In this document: positions 25,793 through 38,317 of the stretch, piece after piece
Layout: every line of letters begins with the position of its first letter
Position numbering within the stretch: position 1 is the stretch's first letter
Assembly (NCBI GenBank): GCA_963717145.1
Contig: OY970325.1
Location: forward strand, 5,219,248-5,283,247
DNA: 64,000 nucleotides
Direction of reading: 5' to 3'
Source of the DNA: an uncultured Armatimonadetes bacterium
GTDB taxonomy: Bacteria; Armatimonadota; UBA5829; DTJY01
Notes under the pieces: model-generated
Database searches by the model: none
The model's input: the letters and a program-made list of their open reading frames with translations, nothing else
Told to the model about the DNA's origin: nothing
Position numbers and translations under genes: made by a program

Positions 25793-27783
25793 ATGGCAGT
25801 CGAACCCTACGATCCGCGACTCTTATCCGCAGCAGACACCGCGACCGAGCACGAATCCGCCCAGGCCGATCCTTCGACAGGCTCAGGAGGCATCACCTGG
25901 CGCGCGCTCCTGATCGGGTTCATCGCCATCATCCCCGGCGTCTTCTGGGGCGTCTACGGCGATGTCGTCTCCCAGACCGACCTGACCTCGACCTCGCTGA
26001 TGATGCCGCCGGTCCTCATCCTGATGGCGCTCCTCGTCCTCAACGGCATCGTCAGGCGCATCAGGCCGATATGGGTGCTCGGCCGCACGGAGTTGATCAC
26101 CATCTACGCGATGCTTACCGTCTCCGTGATCCTCTCCGGCATGGGGATGCTCCAGTTCCTGATGACATCCCTCGGCGCGGTCCCGCACTTTGCCACCCCC
26201 GAGAACGGATGGGGCGCTTACCTCAACATGGTCCCGCACTGGATCATGCCGAAGCTCTCCGCCATCGACGGCTTCTACGTCGGCAACAAGCCGATCCCCT
26301 GGTCTGCGTGGACGAACCCGATCCTCCTGTGGAGCGGATTCCTCTTCGCGATGCTCTTCTGCATGATGTGCATCAACACGATCCTCCGCAAGCAGTGGAT
26401 CGAGCGGGAACGGCTCACATATCCCATAGTCCAACTTCCGCTGGAGATGACCGACCCGAAGAGCCGGTTCTTCTCGAACAGGCTGATGTGGGCAGGGTTC
26501 TTCACCGCCGCCGCACTCGAGACGCTGAACAGCCTCGCGTTCCTCTATCCGAATGTTCCCCAGGTGCAGTTGCGGGCGTTCGACCTTCAGCCGTTCTTCA
26601 GCACCGCGCCGTGGAATGGGGTGGGGTACTTCCCGACGACCTTCTACCCGCTCGCCATCGGACTCGGGTTCGTGCTCGCGACCGACGTGAGCTTCTCGTG
26701 CTGGTTCTTCTACCTCGTGACCAAGGTGGAGGGAGTCCTCACCTCAGCGCTCGGCTGGACGGGTGGGGCGGGCGCGATGAGCGCTCCGCCGTATCTCGCC
26801 CAGCAGAGCGTCGGCGGGTTTATCGGCATCGGCGTCGTGGTGATCTACCTCGCGAGGAATCACCTCAGGGACGTCTTCGCGAAGGTCTTCACCCGCGACT
26901 CCGGCGTTGACGATTCCGAAGAGCCGATGAGCTATCGGATGGCGGTCTTCGGGCTGGGGCTCGGATTCCTCATCATGGTGATATTCTGCGTGGCGGTCGG
27001 CGTCTCTCCGGCTGTGGGGATCGCGTATCTCGGCCTCTACATGCTCTTCGCCACGACGATCAGCCGACTCCGCGCCGAAGCCGGGCCTGCATGGGTGATG
27101 GGCCCGGGTGGGACGCGCTCGACAGCCTCACCCGCCCGATCGGGACCGGGGCATTCAGCGGGGGAAACCTCGTCGCGCTCGCCTACTTCCACTGGTTCAG
27201 CATCGAGATGAGGTGCTGTCCGATGGGCGTGCAGGCCGAGGGGATGAAGATGGCGCAGGCGACCCGAACGAAGCAGCGGGTGATGACGATCGTTCTCCTC
27301 GCGGCGATGGTCATCGGGATCGCGGTCGGATTCTGGGCGTGCCTCGCGGTATGGTACAAGTTCGGCGCGGGGACGGCGAAGGTCGAGCCGTGGCGCACCG
27401 GTATGGGCGCGGCGCCATTCGACCGGGTCACGGACTACATGCAGAACCCGCAGAGGGCCGATGTCGCGGGCATCCTGGCGATCGTCTTCGGCACGGGGTT
27501 CACGTTCCTGCTCAGTCTGATGCGGAGCCGGTTCGTATGGTTTCCGCTCCATCCGGCGGGATACGTGCTCGCGAACACCGGCACGATGTACTGGCTCTGG
27601 TGTCCGTTCCTGCTGGCGTGGATCATCAAGGTCCTGATCATCCGCTACGGCGGGATCAAGGGCTACCGGACCGCGCTCCCATTCTTCCTCGGCCTCGTCC
27701 TCGGCGACTACATAGCCTCGAGCCTCTGGGCCCTCGCGGGCTCCGTTCTCGGCATCACCATGTACCGCTGCTTCCCCTGCTGA
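25793..27783 (+). CDS. Large polytopic membrane protein, paralog 2 (reading frame shifts around 27090-27210)
   Basis: ORF 25793-27211 continues in ORF 27091-27783. Together they align end to end with paralogs 1 and 3 (ILRKQWIERERLTYP, WFFY, FPLHPAGYVL, IRYGG). Confidence 0.55.
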
Positions 27784-27845
27784 TTTCATACTAGTACTCG
27801 TGCTCGTAATCGTACTCGTAATCGCGGTCTTGGGGTTGTCGCGCG

Positions 27846-28298
27846 CTAAGCAGTAGTGGCGACGATCTCCGACGGGGTGATCGCGGTGATCTCGGGGTAT
27901 CGAGCGAAGTCGGAGGGATTCAGGGTCACCAGATGAGTGATGCCGTGCGCCATCATGAAGGCGACTATCCGTGCATCGTGGGCCTTCTTGCCGAGGACGG
28001 AGTATGACTGGACTACCGTCCGCCAACGAGCCGCCATGTCTTCAGGCTCAGGCAGACAAGGAAAGAGTATCTCGATCTCGTCCATGTGGCCGTCGGCCTT
28101 CTCGAGGTCGAACCCCAGTCCATTCACATCCAGCGGCCTGGTAGCCACAACCCAGGATTCTATCAGCACCTGAGCACACACATGGCAAGGCACACCCGAC
28201 TTGCGAAGGGAATCCAGCGCCGCTACGATCTCAGGGTTGCTCGGATCGCTCAGTTCGAAGAACCTGAGGAGCACGTTGGTGTCGATCAGGAAGGTCAC
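27846..28298 (-). CDS. vapC: Type II toxin, PIN-domain ribonuclease (VapC-like)
   Basis: MTFLIDTNVLL start with the conserved acidic residues of the PIN fold. 150 aa. 4-nt overlap with the upstream antitoxin gene. Confidence 0.8.
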   Translation of the reverse strand: MTFLIDTNVLLRFFELSDPSNPEIVAALDSLRKSGVPCHVCAQVLIESWVVATRPLDVNGLGFDLEKADGHMDEIEILFPCLPEPEDMAARWRTVVQSYSVLGKKAHDARIVAFMMAHGITHLVTLNPSDFARYPEITAITPSEIVATTA

Positions 28299-28528
28299 AG
28301 CCGGTCCTCATACATATTCTCACGCCTGAGGGCCTCATCGGGGATGCGGACGCCGGATACCCGCCCGGCAAGGAGTCTCCGCCAGGCTGCATCTTTTGAC
28401 GAAGTGCGCCGACGCTGAGGCTTCTCAACCGCGAGTTGGATTACCAGCGACTGGTTGATCGGCAGGTCCACCGGATCGTCGGGAACGATGGTCTTGCCAT
28501 CATAATGCGCGCGGATTCTCATTGCCAT
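28295..28528 (-). CDS. vapB: Type II antitoxin (VapB-like, DUF104-like small beta protein)
   Basis: MAMRIRAHYDGKTIVPDDPVDLPINQSLVIQLA resembles the DUF104 antitoxin pattern. Translationally coupled to vapC. Confidence 0.55.
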   Translation of the reverse strand: MAMRIRAHYDGKTIVPDDPVDLPINQSLVIQLAVEKPQRRRTSSKDAAWRRLLAGRVSGVRIPDEALRRENMYEDRL

Positions 28529-28560
28529 GGGATTCACCTCGCAAGCATTATACCACATCG

Positions 28561-28800
28561 GCTCTGCATCGGTCGGGATACGTGTTGGTGAACACCGGCA
28601 CGATGTACTGGCTCTGGTGTCCGTTCATGGTGGCATGGTTCGTCAAGGTCCTGATCATCCGCTACGGCGGGATCAAGGGCTACCGGACCGCGCTCCCGTT
28701 CTTCCTCGGGCTCGTCCTCGGCGACTACATCGCCTCATCCCTCTGGGCCCTCGCGGGCTCCGTCCTCGGCATCACGATGTACCGCTGCTTCCCGTGCTGA
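28561..28800 (+). pseudogene. Duplicated 3' fragment (last 80 codons) of the paralog 2 membrane-protein gene. It forms a direct repeat with 27541-27783.
   Basis: About 230 bp nearly identical to 27545-27783. Both encode YVLxNTGTMYWLWCPF...IRYGGIKGYRTALPFFLGLVLGDYIASSLWALAGSVLGITMYRCFPC and stop. Confidence 0.7.
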
Positions 28801-29034
28801 TGGTCGATGGTTGATGGTTGATGGGGAAACGTCAGCCCTGAGTGTGCTGGTGAATGACGTCGTGTATAGAAGGGCGGGCCACCGAAGGGAGGACATTCCG
28901 ACGACCGCTGACGGGCAGTTCCCGCTAGTTGTGCCTGCCCCCCGTTTCTTGTCCCTCATTTCTGTCCGGTGAAGGAACTCCTCGGCATAAAGATGAATGC
29001 TCTAATCACTAGCTAACCCGCAGAGGTAGGGCGC

Positions 29035-32000
29035 ATGGGCGACAAGCCAAAGAAGGTTCGGACACCGATACCGGCGGAGATCGAGCGGCAAGTAAAAGTC
29101 GAGGCAGGCTTTCGCTGCAGCATACCAAGATGTGGAAGCACGTCAGTCTTGGAGATCCACCATATCGATGAAGACGCGAGCAATCATGATTCCACGAATC
29201 TGCTTGTTCTCTGTTCAATCTGTCACGCGCGTATAACCAGAGGGGAGATCGACCAGAAAGCTTGCCGGATGATCAAGCAGGCCATGCTCTCACACGGCGC
29301 GTCACAAGATGAGTTGCTCGCTATCAAGGACACCATCTTCTCAGAGATGCGCAGGCTGGTTGGTCAGCAGGATGTGTCCAGACCTCTTGACGAAGCCGAG
29401 AAGGGGAATATCGGAGTCCCTCTTGGCGTCTTGGACTCGAGTGGAAGACCGGAGAATGGCTTGGTTCCCGTGCGCCCGCCGTTCGCAGATGATCTGAGGA
29501 TCGACGAGAAAGCGGCTATCATGGACGCTCGGGCGCTCACCGAAGTCGACTACATATTCTTTCGGCGTTACTCGGATGGTCGCTCCTCTGTTATCTCTGC
29601 GTACGTTGTCGATAACACCGACGATAGGCTTACTCACGATGGGCTTGCCCAACTGCATCGAAAAGTCTGGCTGCGTGGCACAGTCCCCCTGCTCTACGTC
29701 TTCCAGCATACTCACATAGACCTGCTCGCCTGTGCAAGAGGAGCGGACTTCTGGAGAGATGACGAGGACAGATGCCACTACAACCCTGTGAAATGTATAC
29801 AGATTGCCGGTGACATAACTAATGAACTGAAACGCCTAGCCGAAGGGACGTTTTGGGAAGACCCGGCCAACAGGGAACTTGCCGATTATACAAAAGCTTC
29901 ACACCAGTGTTTGATACAGGCCGTTGTCGAGGCGGATCGCGACCTAAGAGGTAAGGAGAACCCGACACTCCGTCATCTCCTCCTACTGATGGTGCTGATC
30001 AAGTACCTGGAGGATCGCCGTGTTTTTCCGGAGGGTCGGCTATCGCAATTCAGGCCGAGTGCGGAGACCTTCTTCGACATACTCCGAGGTGGCGATCCAT
30101 CCCAAGTCTACGAATGCCTGGATGCCCTGGAATCCAGGTTTGATGGCGATATATTCGCGTTACCCCGCGTCGATATTACCTCTGAGAGACTACACAGCTT
30201 CGCTCGTCTTGTTGAAGCGAGAACGATAGGGCACCAGAGATATCTCTGGACCAGTTTTCATTCGAATACCTGCCGGTGGAGATCATAAGTCATCTGTATC
30301 AACGCTTCGTTGAAGGTGGTCATGGGGCAGTCTACACCCCACCGTTCCTCGCTGCGCTTCTACTAGATCATGCGATGCCCTACGAAGGGCTACGGGGTGA
30401 CGAACGAGTGCTCGACCCGGCGTGCGGCTCCGGCGTATTCCTAGTCGCTGCTTTTCGTAGACTCGTCAATCACTGGCGAAGCAAACACGGGTGGAAGCCG
30501 CCCGATGTAGAGGTGCTCAAATCCATCGCAAAGCATAGCATATTTGGCGTTGAGCTTGATGAGTTCGCGGTCAGTCTCACGGCTTTCAGTTTGTCATTGG
30601 CCATCTGTGACTCATTACATCCCAACGTTATCTGGGACAGGCTGAAGTTTGATCCCTTGTGTCATTCGAATGTGCTACAATCCGACTTCTTTGAGGTACT
30701 GCTTGCCTCTAGGTTAGGCAAGCGTACGATTCTGAATGATGAGTTCGATGTAGTGCTTGGCAATCCTCCCTTCGTGAGCATTCTGTCTGAGGCAGCCAGT
30801 GAAGTGAACCGCGTTTCTAGACGAGATACTTCCCGTGTACCAGTCTCCGACAAGCAGTTAGCTTATCTGTTTCTAGAGCAATCCTTTAGCATTCTTCGCC
30901 CTGGGGGTCGAGTCTGCCTTATTCAGCCTGCGGGATTGCTTCACAACAGGATGGCCAAGGCGTTCCAGCAGGGCTTGTTTCGGAAGCAGACGATCCATGC
31001 GATTCTGGATTTGGCTTCCATACGTAATCTTTACGACGGGGCCGATCCCAGGACCATCGCAGTCTCGGCCACACACAGCCCGCCAAGAAGCGATCATTGG
31101 ATCGAGCATCTGGTGTTTCGTCGTACAGTTAGCGTCAGAGAACGGATATGTTTCGAGCTAGATCACTATGATCGTTTCACGGTGTCCCAGCATGACGCGC
31201 AGACCGACCCCTATGTATGGAGGGTGAATCTATTCGGTGGAGGTCGTCTTCTCGATCTTTCCAGAAGACTAAGAGAGATGCCGACACTGCGGCAGCATCT
31301 CGACCATATGACTGAACGCAGGGGATGGGAGTATGGGGAAGGGTATATCGCAGGAAAGAAGGGCAAGAGATCGAGAGCCCTGTTCCTAACTGGCAAACCG
31401 CTCCTGCCAGCAGTGGCCTTCACAGATGAAGGGATAGATCACACCCAGCTGTCTACCGTGAAGGAGACCACCTTTGCTTCTCCCCGCAGAGAAGCATTCT
31501 ACACGCCGCCACTTATCTTAATTAAGGAAACAGCCTCTCTTCCCATAGTCCTATGGGATGAGGGGCCGATCGCATACGGACATAGGATTGTGGGCATACA
31601 CGCGCCATCGGCGCAATCAGCCGTCTTGCAGTCTATGTATCAGATGCTCAGAGAGCGGCATGCTACATATCGGTTCTGTACCGCTCTACATAGTACGGAA
31701 GCGGGGATAGACAGAGCTACCTCCATCCGAAAGCAGGATCTGGATGCCCTTCCATATCCCGAAAACGCGGAAGAGCTAGCCTTCTGTGATTGGGAGCAGT
31801 CACTCTGTGATGACGTCACTGGCCTGATGTTTGACTACTTACTGAAGGGAGAGGAGTCAATCCTTCTCAGGACAGCGGCAAGCAATGGAGAACTTGATCA
31901 GTACTCAGGCACGTTTGTCCAGATGCTAGGAAGCATCTACCCGAACCTCAAGGCATCCTTTCCACGGTTCACGAACGGCCTCATCTGCCAACCTTTCTAC

Positions 32001-32228
32001 TTCGACGAACTGCCAGATTTGTCATGGCTAGATGAGCCGATGTCGGGCAAGCTGGACGCGCTTATCTATGACCAGCGGCAGCATCTGCGAACGGTCCGTG
32101 TATTGCGTCTATACCTGGATAATGTGCTGCTGCTGATCAAGCCTGACAGGTTGCGGTATTGGATCAGATCTACGGCCATTCGTGATGCAGATGAAACATT
32201 GCTTCACCTACAGGAGTGGGGTTACTAG
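29035..32228 (+). CDS. HNH nuclease fused to a PglX/MmeI-like gamma-class N6-adenine DNA methyltransferase with a C-terminal specificity region. Two caller ORFs are joined across an apparent 1-nt frameshift at about 30200-30240.
   Basis: HNH at residues 25-70: CSIPRCGSTSVLEIHHIDEDASNHDSTNLLVLCSICH. The helical linker (LLLMVLIKYLEDRRVFPEG, FDGDIFAL) and ISLDQFSFEYLPVEIISHLYQRFV continue in frame 0 upstream of the caller GTG start at 30276. Methyltransferase motif I is VLDPACGSGVFLV and motif IV is VVLGNPPFV. Local GC is clearly below the flanking sequence. Confidence 0.65.
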
Positions 32229-32230
32229 TC

Positions 32231-32971
32231 ATGAACAGCGGTTATCCCTACTCAGCGCCAATCGGGAGGATCACAGCGGGTATTGAGCTGGGCACACTCG
32301 CTAACAAGATTATCGATTTCGTTCGCCAGCAGCTGCCAGCATGGAGGGACCACCCCGACCGTGATGATGTCCAGTCGGAGTTCCGCCTAACCTCCCAACT
32401 CTGTGTATTCCTCAATGCCAGGGCGCGCCAGGCTCGCTTCTCTATGATCCAGTTCCATCACGAGCTACCGCAGCCCCGGAGTCGAAGCGTCGATCTATCA
32501 GTACATCCGTTGGATCCCCTGCAGATCGATGCCCGACTCTTCTCAGTATTTCACCCAGTTCTGGTGTTAGAGTGCAAGCGACTTCCCCCTCCAGATCCAA
32601 AACGCGAGAGGGAGTATGTGACAGGCGATGCGAACAAGCGGAGCGGCGGCATACAACGTTTCAAATTGGGTTTGCATGGTTCTGACACCGATGTCGCGGG
32701 TATGATTGGATTTCTCCAGGAGGCCACCGCTCCACATTGGCATAGCACAATCAACGGATGGATTCTTGAGCTATGCAACGGCACTCCGGCCGATGGATGT
32801 ACTTGGAGCAGTGACGAGGTTCTATCGGAGATCGATTGCAGTGTTTCCGGTGGCGTTACCAGCTACTGCTCAGTTCACTCGAGGACTTCCTCAAGATCAG
32901 GCCAGCCTATCACCATCCATCATGTGTGGGTTGCGATGAACCAGCTACAGGGTGCTTGTAGAACGAGTTGA
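32231..32971 (+). CDS. PD-(D/E)xK-like nuclease-fold protein, translationally coupled to the methyltransferase gene
   Basis: Stop TAG at 32226-32228 and ATG at 32231. Possible nuclease motif SVDLSVHP ... PVLVLECKRL (D ... E-x-K). Confidence 0.45.
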   Translation: MNSGYPYSAPIGRITAGIELGTLANKIIDFVRQQLPAWRDHPDRDDVQSEFRLTSQLCVFLNARARQARFSMIQFHHELPQPRSRSVDLSVHPLDPLQIDARLFSVFHPVLVLECKRLPPPDPKREREYVTGDANKRSGGIQRFKLGLHGSDTDVAGMIGFLQEATAPHWHSTINGWILELCNGTPADGCTWSSDEVLSEIDCSVSGGVTSYCSVHSRTSSRSGQPITIHHVWVAMNQLQGACRTS

Positions 32972-33130
32972 TGCCGGTAAGTGGGGTGGTTGGTGGGGCT
33001 ATCTCAGGGAAAGATGTGACCAAATCGTTCTACAGGGGTTCTGTAGAACGATTTGACGCCGGTAAGTGGGGTATTTGGTGGAGGTAACTCACGGAAAGAC
33101 GCCGCCAACGCGGTCTACAGACAGTCTGTA
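32955..33130. repeat. Boundary repeat block at the right end of the low-GC island: direct repeats of TGTAGAACGAnTTGAnGCCGGTAAGTGGGGT plus two hairpins
   Basis: Copies begin at about 32958 and 33041. Hairpins CAAATCGTTCTACAG/CTGTAGAACGATTTG and CGCCGCCAACgcgGTCTACAG/CTGTAGACggaGTTGGCGGCG. Confidence 0.7.
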
Positions 33131-33342
33131 GACGGAGTTGGCGGCGTTTTCATGCCGATTGGGAATCACTGCTGGGGAGTTTGCGCCGTCCGGTAGCCGA
33201 GGGAACCCTGCTGAGAGCCGAGTGGCAGGCCATAATATCTAATAGGTAACGAGTAATGAGTAAGCAGGAGGAACGCGCGCTCATCTTTCGCCGGTCATTA
33301 CTTGTTACCCATTACCCATTGCGCCTTACCGGGAGGATACCC

Positions 33343-34002
33343 ATGGCTGGAGATTATGTTCCACATTCGGAGTTGAAGCTGATCAGTTGGGCGGAGAAGT
33401 TCGTGGGCTTCCTGGAGGATCATGCCGCCGAGACCGGCCTGCCTCCCGAGGAACTGGCGGCGGTCCGGTCGGAGTTCGATGAGTTCGCAAGCGCCTTTGC
33501 CGCGCACGACGCCGCTCGGGTTCACGCAAAGGCAATGTGCAGCGTGAAGGATGATGCCCGGCGGCCACTGGTGAACAGACTTCGCTCGATCGCCACGCGC
33601 GTGAAGGTCAATATGACCATCGATGCCGAGGTCAAGAACGGGGCACGGGCAGTCATCGGCAAGTCGCCTCGACACCCGCGGATGGGAGTATCCGACGACC
33701 GCCCGCACGCGATCATAGATACCGGGCAGCGGCTGAGGCACATCTTCCGCATCATGAACGAGAATACACAGGGCATACACAAGGCTCGGCCGTCGGATGT
33801 CGTCGCCTGCGAGCTTTGGAGGCGGAACGGCGATGGGACCGGCGACTGGAAATACGTTGGCGGCAAGTCGGGCAAGCCGTTTGCTATCCTGTATCGCGAG
33901 GAGGACTCCGGCAAGCAGGTGCAGTACCGGCTGCGCTGGGTCGGCCGCCAGGGTGTTAAGGGCGGCTGGAGCGGAATCAAGATCGCGACGATCGCGGCGT
34001 AA
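33343..34002 (+). CDS. Hypothetical protein, paralog of the gene at 62769-63443
   Basis: Shared N-terminus (MAGDYVPHSELKLISWAEKF versus MGGYLPGSDLELQVWMNKF) and C-terminus (RWVGRQGVKGGWSGIKIATIAA versus RWVYTNGVKGAWSDLESATIAA). Confidence 0.5.
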   Translation: MAGDYVPHSELKLISWAEKFVGFLEDHAAETGLPPEELAAVRSEFDEFASAFAAHDAARVHAKAMCSVKDDARRPLVNRLRSIATRVKVNMTIDAEVKNGARAVIGKSPRHPRMGVSDDRPHAIIDTGQRLRHIFRIMNENTQGIHKARPSDVVACELWRRNGDGTGDWKYVGGKSGKPFAILYREEDSGKQVQYRLRWVGRQGVKGGWSGIKIATIAA

Positions 34003-34250
34003 TGCGGAATGCGGATTGCGGAATGGGGCGGGGACGATGGGGTCCCCGCCCATCCTGCATTCTTGTCTGAGCCGGACGAAAGACACCGGCATACTCAGGG
34101 CTGACGGGGTGGGGGAGCGAACACCTGTGCCCAACATGCTCCTTCGAAAGAAACTCCCTACTGGGTGGGCGGGCGGGTACAAACTCCGGGAACGGCGACC
34201 GCATCCGGAGTTTGTACCCGCCCGCCCACCCAGTAGGGAGTTTCTTTTAC
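34003..34250. repeat. Post-stop hairpin built from CGGAAT-type repeats (34003-34062), followed by a long palindrome with about 45-bp arms (34147-34250)
   Basis: TAATGCGGAATGCGGATTGCGGAATGGGGCGGGGACGATGGGGTCCCCGCCCATCC. Then GAAAGAAACTCCCTACTGGGTGGGCGGGCGGGTACAAACTCCGG ... CCGGAGTTTGTACCCGCCCGCCCACCCAGTAGGGAGTTTCTTT. Confidence 0.8.
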
Positions 34251-34262
34251 TCCCATACTCCC

Positions 34263-36083
34263 TCACTCCTTGCCTCTGACCATCCAGGCCGTGCTGTGCG
34301 GGGGGATAGCGAGCCTCTGGGATGAAAGCCCGGTCGCGGGGAATGCCCTGCCGGGCGACTCGACGCTGACGGCGGTGGGCGAGTCCCAGTGATTGACCGC
34401 GACATCCACCTCGTAGCCATCCCCGACGAGGAGGGCGGTCTCGACGCCCGGGGTCGCGGGCAGACGGGATGCGCGGAGGGCGTCCGACATCTCTCTGAGA
34501 GTCGATTTCAGCGGACCGAGGCCGGAGTCCTCGCCGCCGTCGAGGGAGAGCGTGATGATCGTCGCCCCGCGCTTCTCGGCATCGGCAAGCGCGTCCCGGA
34601 ACGCGTCGGAGTAGGGCGCATCGGGGACGACGAGCAGCTTGTACGGGTCGATCTTGTCGGTGCTGGAGAATGCCCAGTCCACGGGGACATCCGCGTCGTG
34701 GAAAGTCTGCCAGATTCGTACCAGGCGGCGGTCGAGCGGGATCTCATCGGCATTGCGCATCACATACGCCTCGTAGGGCATCACGATGGCGGCTCGTGAG
34801 GGTGCAGGCTTCGCGGCGTAGAGGTAGGGCGCGACCTCCAGGAACGTCTTGTTCGCGTCGGCGGCTTCCTCGGACGCCTTCTTCTGCCAGAGGGGAGCGT
34901 CCGCCTCCCGCCGGCCCGTGGCGATGACGCCCGCGCGGTCGTCACGTTCGTTGTAGCCGTAGTGGAGGGGGAGCAAGCCGCGCGCGGACATACTGCCGAG
35001 CATCTCCGACTGACCCCACGGGCGGTGGAACTCGACCGGGCGGGCGGTCCACGCCTTGTAGCCCGAGTCGAGGTAGTAGATCAGCGCGCCGATCCGCCCC
35101 ACGGAGGCCGACTTCATCAGATCGGCGTCGGCGAGGACGAACTCGAGGCCGTCGTCGCCGTCCGGTTCGTCGCCGATCACGTCGAAATCCTTCCAAAGCT
35201 CGGGCCGGATCGCCCTTCGACCGATGCCGCCCTGGTTGACTCCGCTCTTGCTGCCTTCGAGGAGTCCGTGCTGGCGGAACGCGACCATCGTGTAGAGGCC
35301 GGGGAACTTCGCCTTGAGCCCGCGAGCGACCTGGCCCCAGCCGTCCGCAATGTACTGAGCGCGGAACTCGCCCCAGAGGAGGAGGGCGTCCTGCCTGTCG
35401 GTGTCGGTCGACTTCGGCGGCGTATCGGCGATCACCTTGCCGACGTGCTGCTTCTGGTACTCGATCCATGCGGCATTCGTGTCGGCGGAGTACTCCAGCC
35501 AGTCGCCGTTGTAGTCGGCCATGCCTGTCTCATAGATCACGAGCATGAGCGGATGATGCTTGCCGTCTGGCCCGAGGATTCGGGGCCACGCGGGATGGTC
35601 GATGTAGCGGGCGATCATCTGCGCCTCGTAATCGACCATGGCGGACACCCACTCGGGATCGCCCCACCGGGCGACGCATCCCGGGCAGAAGTTGGTCGGC
35701 GGCGCGCCCATCTCGGTGATCGGCGGCTCATGGCGCTGGGCGAACGGACCGCCCGCGTGGTAGTTCGCGTTCCACTGATCGGGCATCACCATCAGGCCGA
35801 GGCGCTCTGCGGTGGCGTAGTAGTGGTCCCAGACCTCGCCGAGCGAGAGATGCGTGTAGTCGGTATAGGCGACGGTCCATCCCCGGGCGACGACATCCTC
35901 GAGGTCGCGGTCCATGAGCGCGTACTCGGAGGGGAAGTCGTAGTACCGCTCGTAGTACATCGTGGAGACGAACGGCTTCCCGTTCTGGAGCATGCCGGTG
36001 AACGCCTTCGGCGGCTCGGGGATGTCGGCGGCCATCGCGCCGGATATGGTGGATATTGCGATCATCAGAATCACCGCTTTCAT
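34263..36083 (-). CDS. Secreted glycoside-hydrolase-like protein (TIM-barrel type with a C-terminal trimerisation-like domain)
   Basis: Signal peptide MKAVILMIAISTISGAMA. Tyr/Trp-rich barrel region. C-terminal KLLVVPDAPYSDAFRDALADAEKRGATIITL. Family assignment is tentative. Confidence 0.5.
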   Translation of the reverse strand: MKAVILMIAISTISGAMAADIPEPPKAFTGMLQNGKPFVSTMYYERYYDFPSEYALMDRDLEDVVARGWTVAYTDYTHLSLGEVWDHYYATAERLGLMVMPDQWNANYHAGGPFAQRHEPPITEMGAPPTNFCPGCVARWGDPEWVSAMVDYEAQMIARYIDHPAWPRILGPDGKHHPLMLVIYETGMADYNGDWLEYSADTNAAWIEYQKQHVGKVIADTPPKSTDTDRQDALLLWGEFRAQYIADGWGQVARGLKAKFPGLYTMVAFRQHGLLEGSKSGVNQGGIGRRAIRPELWKDFDVIGDEPDGDDGLEFVLADADLMKSASVGRIGALIYYLDSGYKAWTARPVEFHRPWGQSEMLGSMSARGLLPLHYGYNERDDRAGVIATGRREADAPLWQKKASEEAADANKTFLEVAPYLYAAKPAPSRAAIVMPYEAYVMRNADEIPLDRRLVRIWQTFHDADVPVDWAFSSTDKIDPYKLLVVPDAPYSDAFRDALADAEKRGATIITLSLDGGEDSGLGPLKSTLREMSDALRASRLPATPGVETALLVGDGYEVDVAVNHWDSPTAVSVESPGRAFPATGLSSQRLAIPPHSTAWMVRGKE

Positions 36084-36120
36084 AGTTCGATCTCCTTCGG
36101 GAGCGCCGATCACGTTCGGG

Positions 36121-36239: not shown

Positions 36240-38305
36240 TTATGTCTTGGTCTCCAATTTGGCCGGGCTTTCGCCGGACCGAATACGGGCGTACTCGATC
36301 AACCCGGCGAAGGGGTTCGCGTCCTTGTAGCCCCCGACGAGCGAGCCGTGGTCCACTCCGACCTGCAGACCCTCGACCGGCTTCACCGGGAGCCGGCCGA
36401 TGTCGTTCGAGGCGACGAGCTTCCTGTCCACCCACAACTGCGCGCCCTTCGACGTGAGATTGGCGTTGATGCGGGACCATCCCTCGCCGATCGGATACTT
36501 CGCCGCGACCTCGGTCAGCGCCCCGTCGATGCGGATCGCGAGCGTGGGGATTCTATCCCTAAGGTAGAGCGCGTACCCGTGGCTCTCTCCTCCCTGGGCG
36601 AGGATGACGCCATCCGACTCGGGCTTCACCATTGCCTCCACGTTCCAGTCGATCGCGCCGGGATCGAGGCTCTTGGAGGGTGGGACATCGACGAAATCGC
36701 CTTTCGCGAGCTTCAAGACCTTCTTGCCGCCGTCTTCCACGAACGTCCCGCCGTGGAGCGTGCCATGGTTCCCCTGGCCGGAGAGATCATCAGCGTTCCC
36801 CTTGCTGAAGTCGAAACTCAGCACCGGGCCGATCACCCGCTCGACCTTCTCACCGACGACCGGCGGCGCTCCGAGTTGGACTCCCTCGGGGTAGCCGGTC
36901 GCCTTTTTGAGCCGTGCAAGTTCCTTCCGCATCTCCTTGAGCCTGACCGCATGAGCCGGATCCTGCGCGAGGTTGTGCATCTCGATGGGATCGGCCTTCA
37001 GGTCGTACAGCTCGTCGATGTCGTTCATGTCCGGATAGGTGCAGTACTTCCATCGATCCGTGCGGACGCCGAGCATGAGGGGAAGGCCCGCCGCCCAAGA
37101 CTCGCGGAAGTATTCGTACAGGAACGACTCGTGGCCCGGCTTGCCCTTCAGGACGGGGACCATCGAGCGCCCCTGCATGCCCTCGGGGATCTTCACGCCC
37201 GCGAGTTCGAGCACGGTCGGCGCAAGGTCGATGTTCAACACAGTGCCGTCCACCTTGCTGCCTGCCTTGACGAGCTTCGGGTAGCGCACGAGCATCGGGA
37301 TGCGGATCGATTCCTCATACATCAGCCGCTTGTCGCCGAGTCCGTGCTCGCCGACGAAGTATCCGTTGTCGCCCGCGAAGACGATGATCGTGTTGTCGAG
37401 CTTCCCGGCCTTCTCCAGCGTATCGAGCACGCGCCCGATGCTCTCGTCGATCCCGAGGATCGTGCGGTAGTAGTCCATCATACCCTTGCCGTTCCAGTCA
37501 CCGCGCTTTATCTCGTCGGGGATCGGCTGGCCCTCGCTCGCGGCCCACTGGTTGCGCTGCATACCATGGGTGAACGCGCGTCTCATCCACTTCGGCTTGT
37601 CGGCGAACGTGTCCTTGAAGCTCGCGGGCTCGGGGATGGAGTCGTCGGCGAATGCATCCCTGTGCCGGGGCGCGGGGTGAAGGGCCCGTGCACCGCCTTG
37701 TGGGAGAGCACCATGCAGAACGGCTGGGTCCGATCCTTCCTCAGCCACCTGAGGGCGTAGTCGGTCAGGATGTCGCTCATGTACCCCTTGGCCCTGAACT
37801 CGCGACCGTTCTCGTTCAGCTTCGGGTCCTCATAGACTCCCTGCCCGAGGAAGCTGAGCCAGTAGTCGAATCCCGGGCGAGGATTCGACGTCGGGGCCTG
37901 ATGCCACTTCCCCACGAACGCGGTATCGTAGCCAGCATCCTGGAGAAGCTTGGGGAACGTGGGACATGAGGGATCGGGATCGAAGCCCTCGTTGGTGACG
38001 ACGCCGTGCTTGTGGGCATAGGTCCCGGTCAGGAAGCACGCTCGGCTCGGGGAGCAGAGCGCGATCGTGACGAACGCATTCCGGACGTGCGCTCCCTCGC
38101 GGGCGATGCGGTCGAGGTTCGGCGTCTTGAACCACGACGGGTGACCCATGAACCCCATTGCGTCATGGCGCTGGTCGTCGGTCAGGATGAAGAGGATGTT
38201 CGGCCGCTCGCCTGCATCGGCCTCATCCATGGAGAGCCCGGCGGCGAGTACCCCGGCTGTTGCCATCCCCCGACTCAGGAATTCACGTCGTGTGATTGTG
38301 GTCAT
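36240..38305 (-). CDS. Arylsulfatase (formylglycine-dependent sulfatase) with a TAT signal, split by a frameshift in a C-run near 37690
   Basis: TRREFLSRGMATAGVLAAG twin-arginine signal. CSPSRACFLTG sulfatase signature. The junction ...HKAVHGPFTP / (A)PRHRDAFADDSIPEP is restored by adding one C. Paralog of the gene at 38318. Confidence 0.7.
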
Positions 38306-38317
38306 TGTGTTCTCCTG

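Follow-up and report, generated by a model that had tools for sequence, protein, structure and literature searches.

A widespread, unnamed two-gene candidate restriction-modification cassette with a probable one-off HNH chimera in an uncultured Armatimonadetes bacterium

Type IIG restriction enzymes are defined by a DNA-cleavage domain that resides in the same polypeptide as the methyltransferase, and the MmeI family is known for its diversified specificities (PMC4081073). In other restriction enzymes, an HNH nuclease in place of the PD-(D/E)xK domain is tolerated (PMC12707154). The locus described here lies in a 64,000-nucleotide (nt) stretch of contig OY970325.1 from an uncultured Armatimonadetes bacterium, referred to as the window, whose positions are used throughout. 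A first-pass annotation, made from the sequence alone, had proposed that a low-GC island at 29035-33130 encodes an undescribed defence system, namely an HNH nuclease fused to a Type IIG-like N6-adenine methyltransferase and coupled to a PD-(D/E)xK protein. We consider it probable that the island is a horizontally acquired copy of a widespread, unnamed two-gene restriction-modification (R-M) cassette and that the HNH head of this copy is a one-off chimera. Judged by the comparisons below, the conserved unit would be a two-gene module comprising a methyltransferase of ~950 amino acids (aa) with its own recognition domain and a nuclease of ~240 aa. The module has no name in Pfam, NCBIfam, or PADLOC, and neither an HNH-Type IIG fusion nor a named two-gene system of this kind was found in the literature. 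It is best read as a Type II-style R-M pair whose methyltransferase follows a Type IIG/PglX-like scaffold and, as such, would be ordinary in kind.

The island contains three co-oriented open reading frames (ORFs) on the forward strand, i.e., ORF1 (29035-30288, 417 aa), ORF2 (30276-32228, 650 aa), and ORF3 (32231-32971, 246 aa). Its GC content is 0.50 to 0.56 compared to 0.60 to 0.68 in the flanks on both sides, and the GC content at third codon positions (GC3) of the three ORFs is 0.57 to 0.63 compared to 0.77 to 0.92 in neighbouring host genes. Because both measures depart from those of the flanks and host genes, the island is clearly foreign DNA. Within the island, GC3 is 0.63 for the HNH part and 0.57 to 0.59 for the cassette. 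ORF1 and ORF2 are a single gene split by a 1-nt deletion at 30247-30249 (+), where the window has GG and the homologues have GGG (TGG GAx). Specifically, three-frame translation showed that insertion of one base after this TGG results in a continuous product of 1064 aa. The frame upstream of the ORF2 start reads ...ISLDQFSFEYLPVEIISHLYQRFV, and the intact homologues of ~950 aa pass uninterrupted across the break ('...QRYLWEQFSFEHLPVEIISHLYQRF...'), the sequence there being QRYLW-E/D/Q-QFSFEHLPVEIISHLYQRF. The first-pass annotation was therefore borne out with respect to the low-GC island of three co-oriented ORFs, the assignment of two called ORFs to one polypeptide with a 1-nt frameshift, and the residues encoded ahead of the ORF2 start.

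A search with the repaired 1064-aa product returned 1155 methyltransferase matches. The top 120 are uniformly ~950 aa in length and share 54 to 59% identity with the query over 85 to 89% of its length, the alignment beginning at about residue 125. The genomic context was compared at 84 loci, composed of four initial loci and 80 obtained from a scan of one genome per species; the latter span Planctomycetota, Nitrospirota, Desulfobacterota, Chloroflexota, Acidobacteriota, Verrucomicrobiota, Myxococcota, and Gammaproteobacteria. An ORF3 homologue is located directly downstream of the methyltransferase gene in 81 of the 84 loci. In all three exceptions the methyltransferase match is incomplete, and in two of them the contig ends. 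The four initial loci belong to Dehalococcoides mccartyi AP024514, a Candidatus Thiosymbion symbiont, and two metagenome-assembled genomes. Each carries a gene for a protein of 234 to 248 aa without a Pfam match, positioned 3 to 4 nt past the ~950-aa gene, and in the two loci that were aligned this downstream gene product is 45 to 47% identical to ORF3. A methyltransferase gene and an endonuclease gene that are adjacent and inherited together are characteristic of Type II R-M systems, and this arrangement is what the 81 loci display. When the flanking ORFs of ~82 loci were clustered, no other conserved partner emerged except a LexA-like gene at 11 loci.

The LexA-like gene encodes a LexA-type repressor (LexA DNA-binding domain plus Peptidase_S24) and is found immediately upstream of the module in the same orientation, in several phyla (L047, L049, L050, L051, L061, L064, L067, L069, L084, L087, and L088; for example, L050:4303-4950). 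It may serve as a regulator, possibly linked to the SOS response, for a subclade of the module. Two further neighbourhoods were recorded. In the D. mccartyi AP024514 locus (L001, 11587-18859), the module adjoins an Eco57I/TaqI_C-type methyltransferase (1069 aa) as well as a PLD-nuclease/SNF2-helicase protein (1062 aa), which corresponds to a defence-island context. At L004, a GIY-YIG plus N6_N4_Mtase pair lies ~5 kb from the module.

ORF3 starts after a 2-nt spacer past the stop codon of the methyltransferase gene and is preceded by GGAG, an arrangement that points to tight translational coupling of the two genes. The protein has no match in Pfam, PADLOC, or NCBIfam, and 713 homologues were present in the databases searched. 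It combines an α/β restriction-endonuclease core with a D...(D/E)xK motif, the features by which PD-(D/E)xK proteins are recognised, and its fold is BamHI/BglII-like. The putative catalytic residues D88 (32492-32494), E114 (32570-32572), and K116 (32576-32578), all on the forward strand, are invariant in 40 ORF3 homologues.

The remainder of the repaired gene encodes the methyltransferase proper. The ORF1 frame from 29410 to 30249 (+) specifies a conserved N-terminal α/β domain (residues ~128 to 290) followed by a helical linker (residues ~291 to 414), and 30249-32228 (+) specifies a γ-class N6-adenine DNA methyltransferase domain together with a C-terminal recognition-type region of ~400 aa. 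Motif I (VLDPACGSGVFLV) is located at ~30408-30446 and motif IV (NPPF) at ~30762-30773. The columns of motif I (D-x-x-CGSG) and NPPF are invariant across 40 sequences, and the Pfam families Eco57I, N6_Mtase, and MmeI_Mtase match ORF2 above their cut-offs. The ~400-aa C terminus can be superposed on CamA and M.TaqI over their methyltransferase plus recognition regions. Because conservation in the C-terminal region matches that of the catalytic core (mean pairwise identity of 62 to 66% versus 67%), the alignment suggests that the relatives share one specificity. The N-terminal domain and linker align with the ~950-aa homologues from the first residues of the latter, and the AlphaFold2 model reaches predicted local distance difference test (pLDDT) values of ~75 to 90 over both. 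Conserved residues of this domain include E158, R177, D181, R183, D193, N194, H208, D229, and R235; no (D/E)xK or ExK is found among its invariant residues. A search with the domain alone gave no sequence match in the PDB, the corresponding part of the intact homologues has no Pfam match, and profile comparison indicates that the domain is unrelated to ORF3. Its sequence is compatible with more than one role, such as a platform on which ORF3 docks or a nuclease that has degenerated. Overall, the features initially recognised in the two proteins, i.e., a γ-class amino-methyltransferase, a PglX/MmeI-like helical linker, a C-terminal recognition region, and a downstream D...ExK protein of the PD-(D/E)xK fold, are supported.

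In view of these features, the family was compared with the closest described systems. With its γ-class methyltransferase bearing motif I and NPPY/F, it resembles Type IIG enzymes. Unlike in the Type IIG/IIL enzymes MmeI, BpuSI, DrdV, and Eco57I, however, its recognisable nuclease is a separate protein of 240 aa, and its N-terminal domain has no detectable PD-(D/E)xK signature or match to a nuclease profile. In the window an HNH nuclease does share the ORF with the methyltransferase, as the Type IIG definition demands of a cleavage domain, but it does so in a singleton chimera that is frameshifted. Likewise, the family falls outside the MmeI family (Type IIL). In Pfam, three intact homologues matched methyltransferase-domain families alone even at E ≤ 10; among the MmeI-type domains this left MmeI_Mtase, with no match to the N-terminal nuclease, linker, recognition, or C-terminal domains, and whereas MmeI specificities have diversified (PMC4081073), the C-terminal region of the present family is conserved like the core. 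BREX PglX/BrxX proteins differ even more. The NCBIfam PglX models score 37 to 54 bits against cut-offs of 400 to 900, and the partner in the present family is instead a restriction-fold nuclease. PglZ, BrxC, BrxL, and other BREX genes are absent from the window and from the called genes of the four initial loci, which agrees with the lack of PglZ/BrxC partners noted at the outset. The MAD2 methyltransferase of the MADS system (68.5 bits versus a cut-off of 720; two-gene context only) and the ZorE protein of Zorya type II (NCBIfam, 15.8 bits versus a cut-off of 600; no ZorAB nearby) do not account for the locus either. Compared to M.TaqI/R.TaqI and the orphan CamA, the family adds a conserved N-terminal domain of ~290 aa plus the linker, and in contrast to classical Type II pairs such as M.TaqI/R.TaqI, its two genes are coupled near-invariantly across phyla.

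The HNH (ββα-metal) nuclease module and its helical linker occupy the first 124 codons of ORF1 (29035-29409, +) and are of the type found in HNH-TPR genes, where TPR denotes tetratricopeptide repeats. The signature reads C28-x4-C33 ... H42H43 ... N55 ... C60-x2-C63-H64, and the N terminus of ORF1 thereby contains both the catalytic His/Asn/His-or-Asn residues and the zinc-binding pairs of four Cys that characterise HNH endonucleases. The canonical cluster announced by the first-pass annotation is thus present and intact, except that the first Cys pair is Cx4C and not CxxC. C28, C33, H43, N55, C60, and H64 show 99% conservation across 152 sequences of the subfamily. The Pfam HNH model matches ORF1 with E = 1.8e-3 (18.8 bits, below the cut-off of 21.4), relatives of the head match Pfam HNH, HNH_2, or HNH_3, and the PADLOC ZorE-type HNH models match ORF1 with E = 2e-6, covering the HNH core only. 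Note that the AlphaFold2 model has pLDDT values below 50 at residues 1 to 125, where the underlying alignment contains no rows, and is hence uninformative on the HNH fold.

An exhaustive HMMER search with residues 1 to 142 as the query identified 2001 relatives of the head. The best 150 of these, the ORF1 product of the window apart, comprise 74 to 476 aa and carry the HNH module at the N terminus in nearly all cases; none of them exceeds 476 aa. The closest among the matches listed, P0243 and P0244, are 59 to 61% identical to the window product over residues 4 to 124. This match takes in the linker (...EMRKLVGSQDVARPL..DKG) that follows the HNH module, and beyond HNH and linker both proteins continue with TPR repeats. 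Across the HNH-TPR proteins P0243 to P0248, residues 4 to 124 of the window product share 39 to 61% identity with the N termini, linker included, but the C termini of these proteins are TPR repeats or other short domains, giving total lengths of 74 to 476 aa without a methyltransferase. In tblastn comparisons with P0243, P0244, P0246, P0247, and P0248, homology to the window stops at nt 29406-29409, and homology to the methyltransferase family starts within a few codons past nt 29409. The same five proteins revealed no TPR remnant of the donor gene anywhere in the window.

Because the HNH-TPR homology ends where the methyltransferase family begins, ORF1 is most simply understood as a chimera in which 124 codons of HNH-TPR type were joined in frame at about codon 3 to 5 of a methyltransferase gene, whose own start codon and upstream region appear to have been lost in the window copy. 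No HNH module is fused to the methyltransferase in any of the 84 homologous loci or in the top 120 protein matches. Consistently, the methyltransferase ORFs of the 84 loci have an in-frame stop codon 6 to 127 codons upstream of their conserved start 'M..(S)LQ.VDF', and a word-indexed search for fused relatives with residues 1 to 154 recovered only a free-standing HNH protein of 165 aa in an unrelated context. The HNH-methyltransferase architecture thus presents itself as a singleton chimeric junction rather than an evolved design known elsewhere, and the initial proposal that the fusion represents a new system was not sustained. Since the HNH part has approximately the foreign GC3 of the cassette, the join probably predates the transfer into this genome or arose during it. 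A role of HNH as a loosely associated third gene was also considered. When the six-frame ORFs of all loci were scanned with the subfamily hidden Markov model, an HNH ORF was detected near the module at 2 distinct loci of ~82, upstream of it at L003/L011 and downstream at L018. The two genes belong to different HNH subfamilies and occupy different positions, a frequency of this order is, by a rough estimate, what chance would yield in defence islands, and the candidate was rejected.

From domain content and gene pairing we infer methylation and restriction activities for the module. The product of gene 1, composed of the N-terminal α/β domain, the PglX/MmeI-like linker, the N6-adenine methyltransferase, and the CamA/M.TaqI-like recognition region, would transfer methyl groups from S-adenosylmethionine to adenines within a fixed DNA motif, thereby protecting the host. 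The product of gene 2 would cut copies of the motif that lack the methyl mark. It may do so on its own, in the manner of a Type II enzyme, or as a separable nuclease subunit that binds to the N-terminal domain of the gene 1 product. In the window, the 5′ end of gene 1 would have recombined such that 124 codons for HNH and linker replace its own start in frame, and translation of the methyltransferase would then have to begin at the HNH start or at a start inside the gene. An activity of the HNH head itself is putative. If the frameshift is real, ORF2 would nevertheless cover the catalytic and recognition parts in full, and protection of the host might persist.

As to the origin of the frameshift, we lean towards a G run that was misassembled. 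The 64-kb window contains three 1-nt deletions located in G/C runs, affecting the methyltransferase gene, a DUF6785/DUF6784 membrane-protein gene (25793-27783), and a sulfatase gene (36240-38317, -), and the assembly-error reading is favoured because three like indels per 64 kb are the pattern expected of errors in long-read assembly. The membrane-protein gene is split near 27115-27135, inside GGGCCCGGGTGGG. The sulfatase gene is split near 37660-37700 in a CCCCG(G)CG context, with Pfam Sulfatase positions 1 to 179 in one ORF and positions 200 to 301 plus SGSH_C in the other. Seven other overlapping same-strand ORF pairs in the window revealed no further split gene; five are clearly separate genes, and two have no Pfam match on either ORF. 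The Logan assembly of ERR12037368 contains an identical ORF3 on a contig of 3929 nt, whose first partial product is 659 aa. By calculation this contig spans ~30249-34177 of the window, starting exactly at the frameshift site and ending inside the 43-nt inverted repeat at 34147-34189/34205-34247, and the break at 30249 is consistent with reads that disagree on the length of the G run there. If real, the frameshift would be a very recent inactivation. Phase variation, which the first-pass annotation had listed among the possible causes, and programmed frameshifting were rejected, the site having no slippery heptamer and a run of just 3 G.

Several points weigh against the interpretation of the island as a shared cassette with an accidental chimera. 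The window methyltransferase deviates at 11 of 198 positions that are invariant in 39 other methyltransferases (control: mean of 2.1 deviations, maximum of 7), and ORF3 deviates at 2 of 40 invariant positions; the window copy shows more departures from invariant positions than any other member compared. These could reflect relaxed constraint, i.e., decay, but could equally be an outgroup effect, the set having been chosen by similarity to the window copy. The junction is in frame, free of stop codons, and placed exactly at the methyltransferase start, which is tidier than a random accident and leaves room for a selected fusion. Finally, the N-terminal domain could be a divergent nuclease, in which case the family would be true Type IIG and ORF3 an accessory protein.

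Of the rival explanations, decay survives best. Here the frameshift would be real, the 5′ end would have been lost in recombination, and the locus would be a pseudogene from which at most ORF2 and ORF3 are expressed separately. Besides the departures just mentioned, this explanation can draw on the split of the gene in the deposited sequence, on the rearranged surroundings (the duplicated 3′ end of a gene, the vapBC pair, and another broken gene at a distance of 3 kb), and on the failure of the independent Logan assembly to bridge the site, its contig starting at 30249. On the other hand, all catalytic motifs and ~95% of the family-invariant residues are kept, the stop codons result solely from the single shift, the three G/C-run indels of the same type point to assembly error, and a cell with an intact nuclease but an inactive methyltransferase would die unless ORF3 were silent too. 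Decay is therefore possible but, in our assessment, unlikely.

More doubtful is the reading in which HNH, methyltransferase, and recognition parts form one functional enzyme chain that cooperates with the coupled PD-(D/E)xK protein, the frameshift being a sequencing error. The enzyme would then be Type IIG-like, with an HNH replacing or supplementing a PD-(D/E)xK domain. All catalytic and zinc-binding residues of the HNH module are intact, the module shares the foreign composition of the cassette, the frameshift resembles an assembly artefact, and swaps between HNH and PD-(D/E)xK work in other restriction enzymes (PMC12707154). The tidy junction speaks for such an enzyme as well, and with the gene's own start lost, protection from ORF3 would need the HNH start or an internal start. 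Against it stand the singleton nature of the fusion among the 84 loci and top 120 matches, the size limit of 476 aa for the 150 listed HNH relatives (the window product apart), the near-chance occurrence of HNH genes of different subfamilies next to the module (2 of ~82 loci), and the dedicated nuclease partner that the family already possesses. It is accordingly improbable that a 1064-aa protein with HNH, N-terminal, methyltransferase, and recognition parts is made and acts with the BamHI-like partner, the frameshift being an artefact. Least probable is a true Type IIG/IIL family with the N-terminal domain as its nuclease and ORF3 as an accessory (second-strand cutter, controller, or unrelated nuclease), given that adjacent strands of the domain carry no (D/E)xK triad, that no hidden Markov model or profile links the domain to any nuclease or to ORF3, and that 81 of 84 loci have ORF3, whose catalytic triad is invariant, as the partner of the methyltransferase.

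To the right, the island ends in a repeat and hairpin block (32945-33155, +) that begins inside the last ORF3 codons. It consists of 2.1 tandem copies of an 85-nt unit (32945-33120), i.e., two full units, followed by an inverted partial copy up to 33150. The block contains three CTACAG..CTGTAG hairpins, the last of which, with a stem of 27 bp and TTTT after it, resembles a terminator; the predicted RNA fold has a free energy of -101 kcal/mol (z = -7.1). Copies of the block were found neither elsewhere in the window nor in the homologous loci, it has no Rfam match, and inspection by eye revealed no integron attC cores (RYYYAAC/GTTRRRY). A function of the block as part of the system, as an attC site, or as a known RNA was rejected in view of its absence from the homologous loci and the lack of an Rfam match. 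The block described in the first-pass annotation does exist, but it is not dedicated to the system.

To the left, the vapBC pair and duplicated gene fragment of that annotation are indeed present. The vapBC-type toxin-antitoxin pair (27846-28558, -) includes a PIN toxin at 27846-28298 (Pfam PIN, 3.1e-9) and a small upstream partner at 28295-28558; the pair adjoins the module without belonging to it. Direct repeats of 238 nt (27547-27784/28564-28801) lie on both sides of vapBC. The second copy (28564-28801, +) duplicates the 3′ end of the DUF6785/DUF6784 gene, shares 92% identity with 27547-27784, and has a Pfam DUF6784 match on 28522-28800. The duplication marks a rearranged insertion hotspot to the left of the cassette and resembles what an insertion aimed at this gene's 3′ end would leave behind; no integrase was seen near the repeat. 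Directly past the duplicated fragment, a 7-nt tandem repeat (TGATGGT, 3.9 copies) is located at 28798-28824.

The ORF at 33256-34002 (+; 219 to 248 aa) to the right of the island has a host-like composition (GC3 of 0.77) and no match in Pfam, PADLOC, or NCBIfam. A 32-nt inverted repeat (28830-28861/34075-34106) encloses the low-GC island and ORF 33343-34002. Its arms are 81% complementary and share the perfect 14-nt core CGTCAGCCCTGAGT; it could be a chance match, ~0.15 perfect 14-nt inverted repeats being expected by chance according to our estimate for the 9-kb region scanned. The arms of a perfect 43-nt inverted repeat (34147-34189/34205-34247), separated by 15 nt, are positioned between ORF 33343-34002 and the convergent gene 34263-36113.

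Unless its expression and activity are shown, the HNH head is no evidence for a new enzyme class. Were it made and active, it would be a natural graft of an HNH nuclease onto a Type IIG-like scaffold. More broadly, the family may turn out to be a 'split Type IIG' in which the N-terminal domain docks a detachable nuclease subunit; if this domain recruits the small protein, the family would stand between the classical two-gene Type II systems and the Type IIG/IIL enzymes made as one chain. The family is of greater significance than the fusion, comprising more than 1000 methyltransferases and 713 partners in many phyla. Because neither the nuclease nor the N-terminal domain has a match in Pfam, NCBIfam, or PADLOC, current defence and R-M finders would report at most a lone methyltransferase at such loci. 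Given the uniformly conserved recognition region, a presumably shared specificity could be read from existing methylomes.

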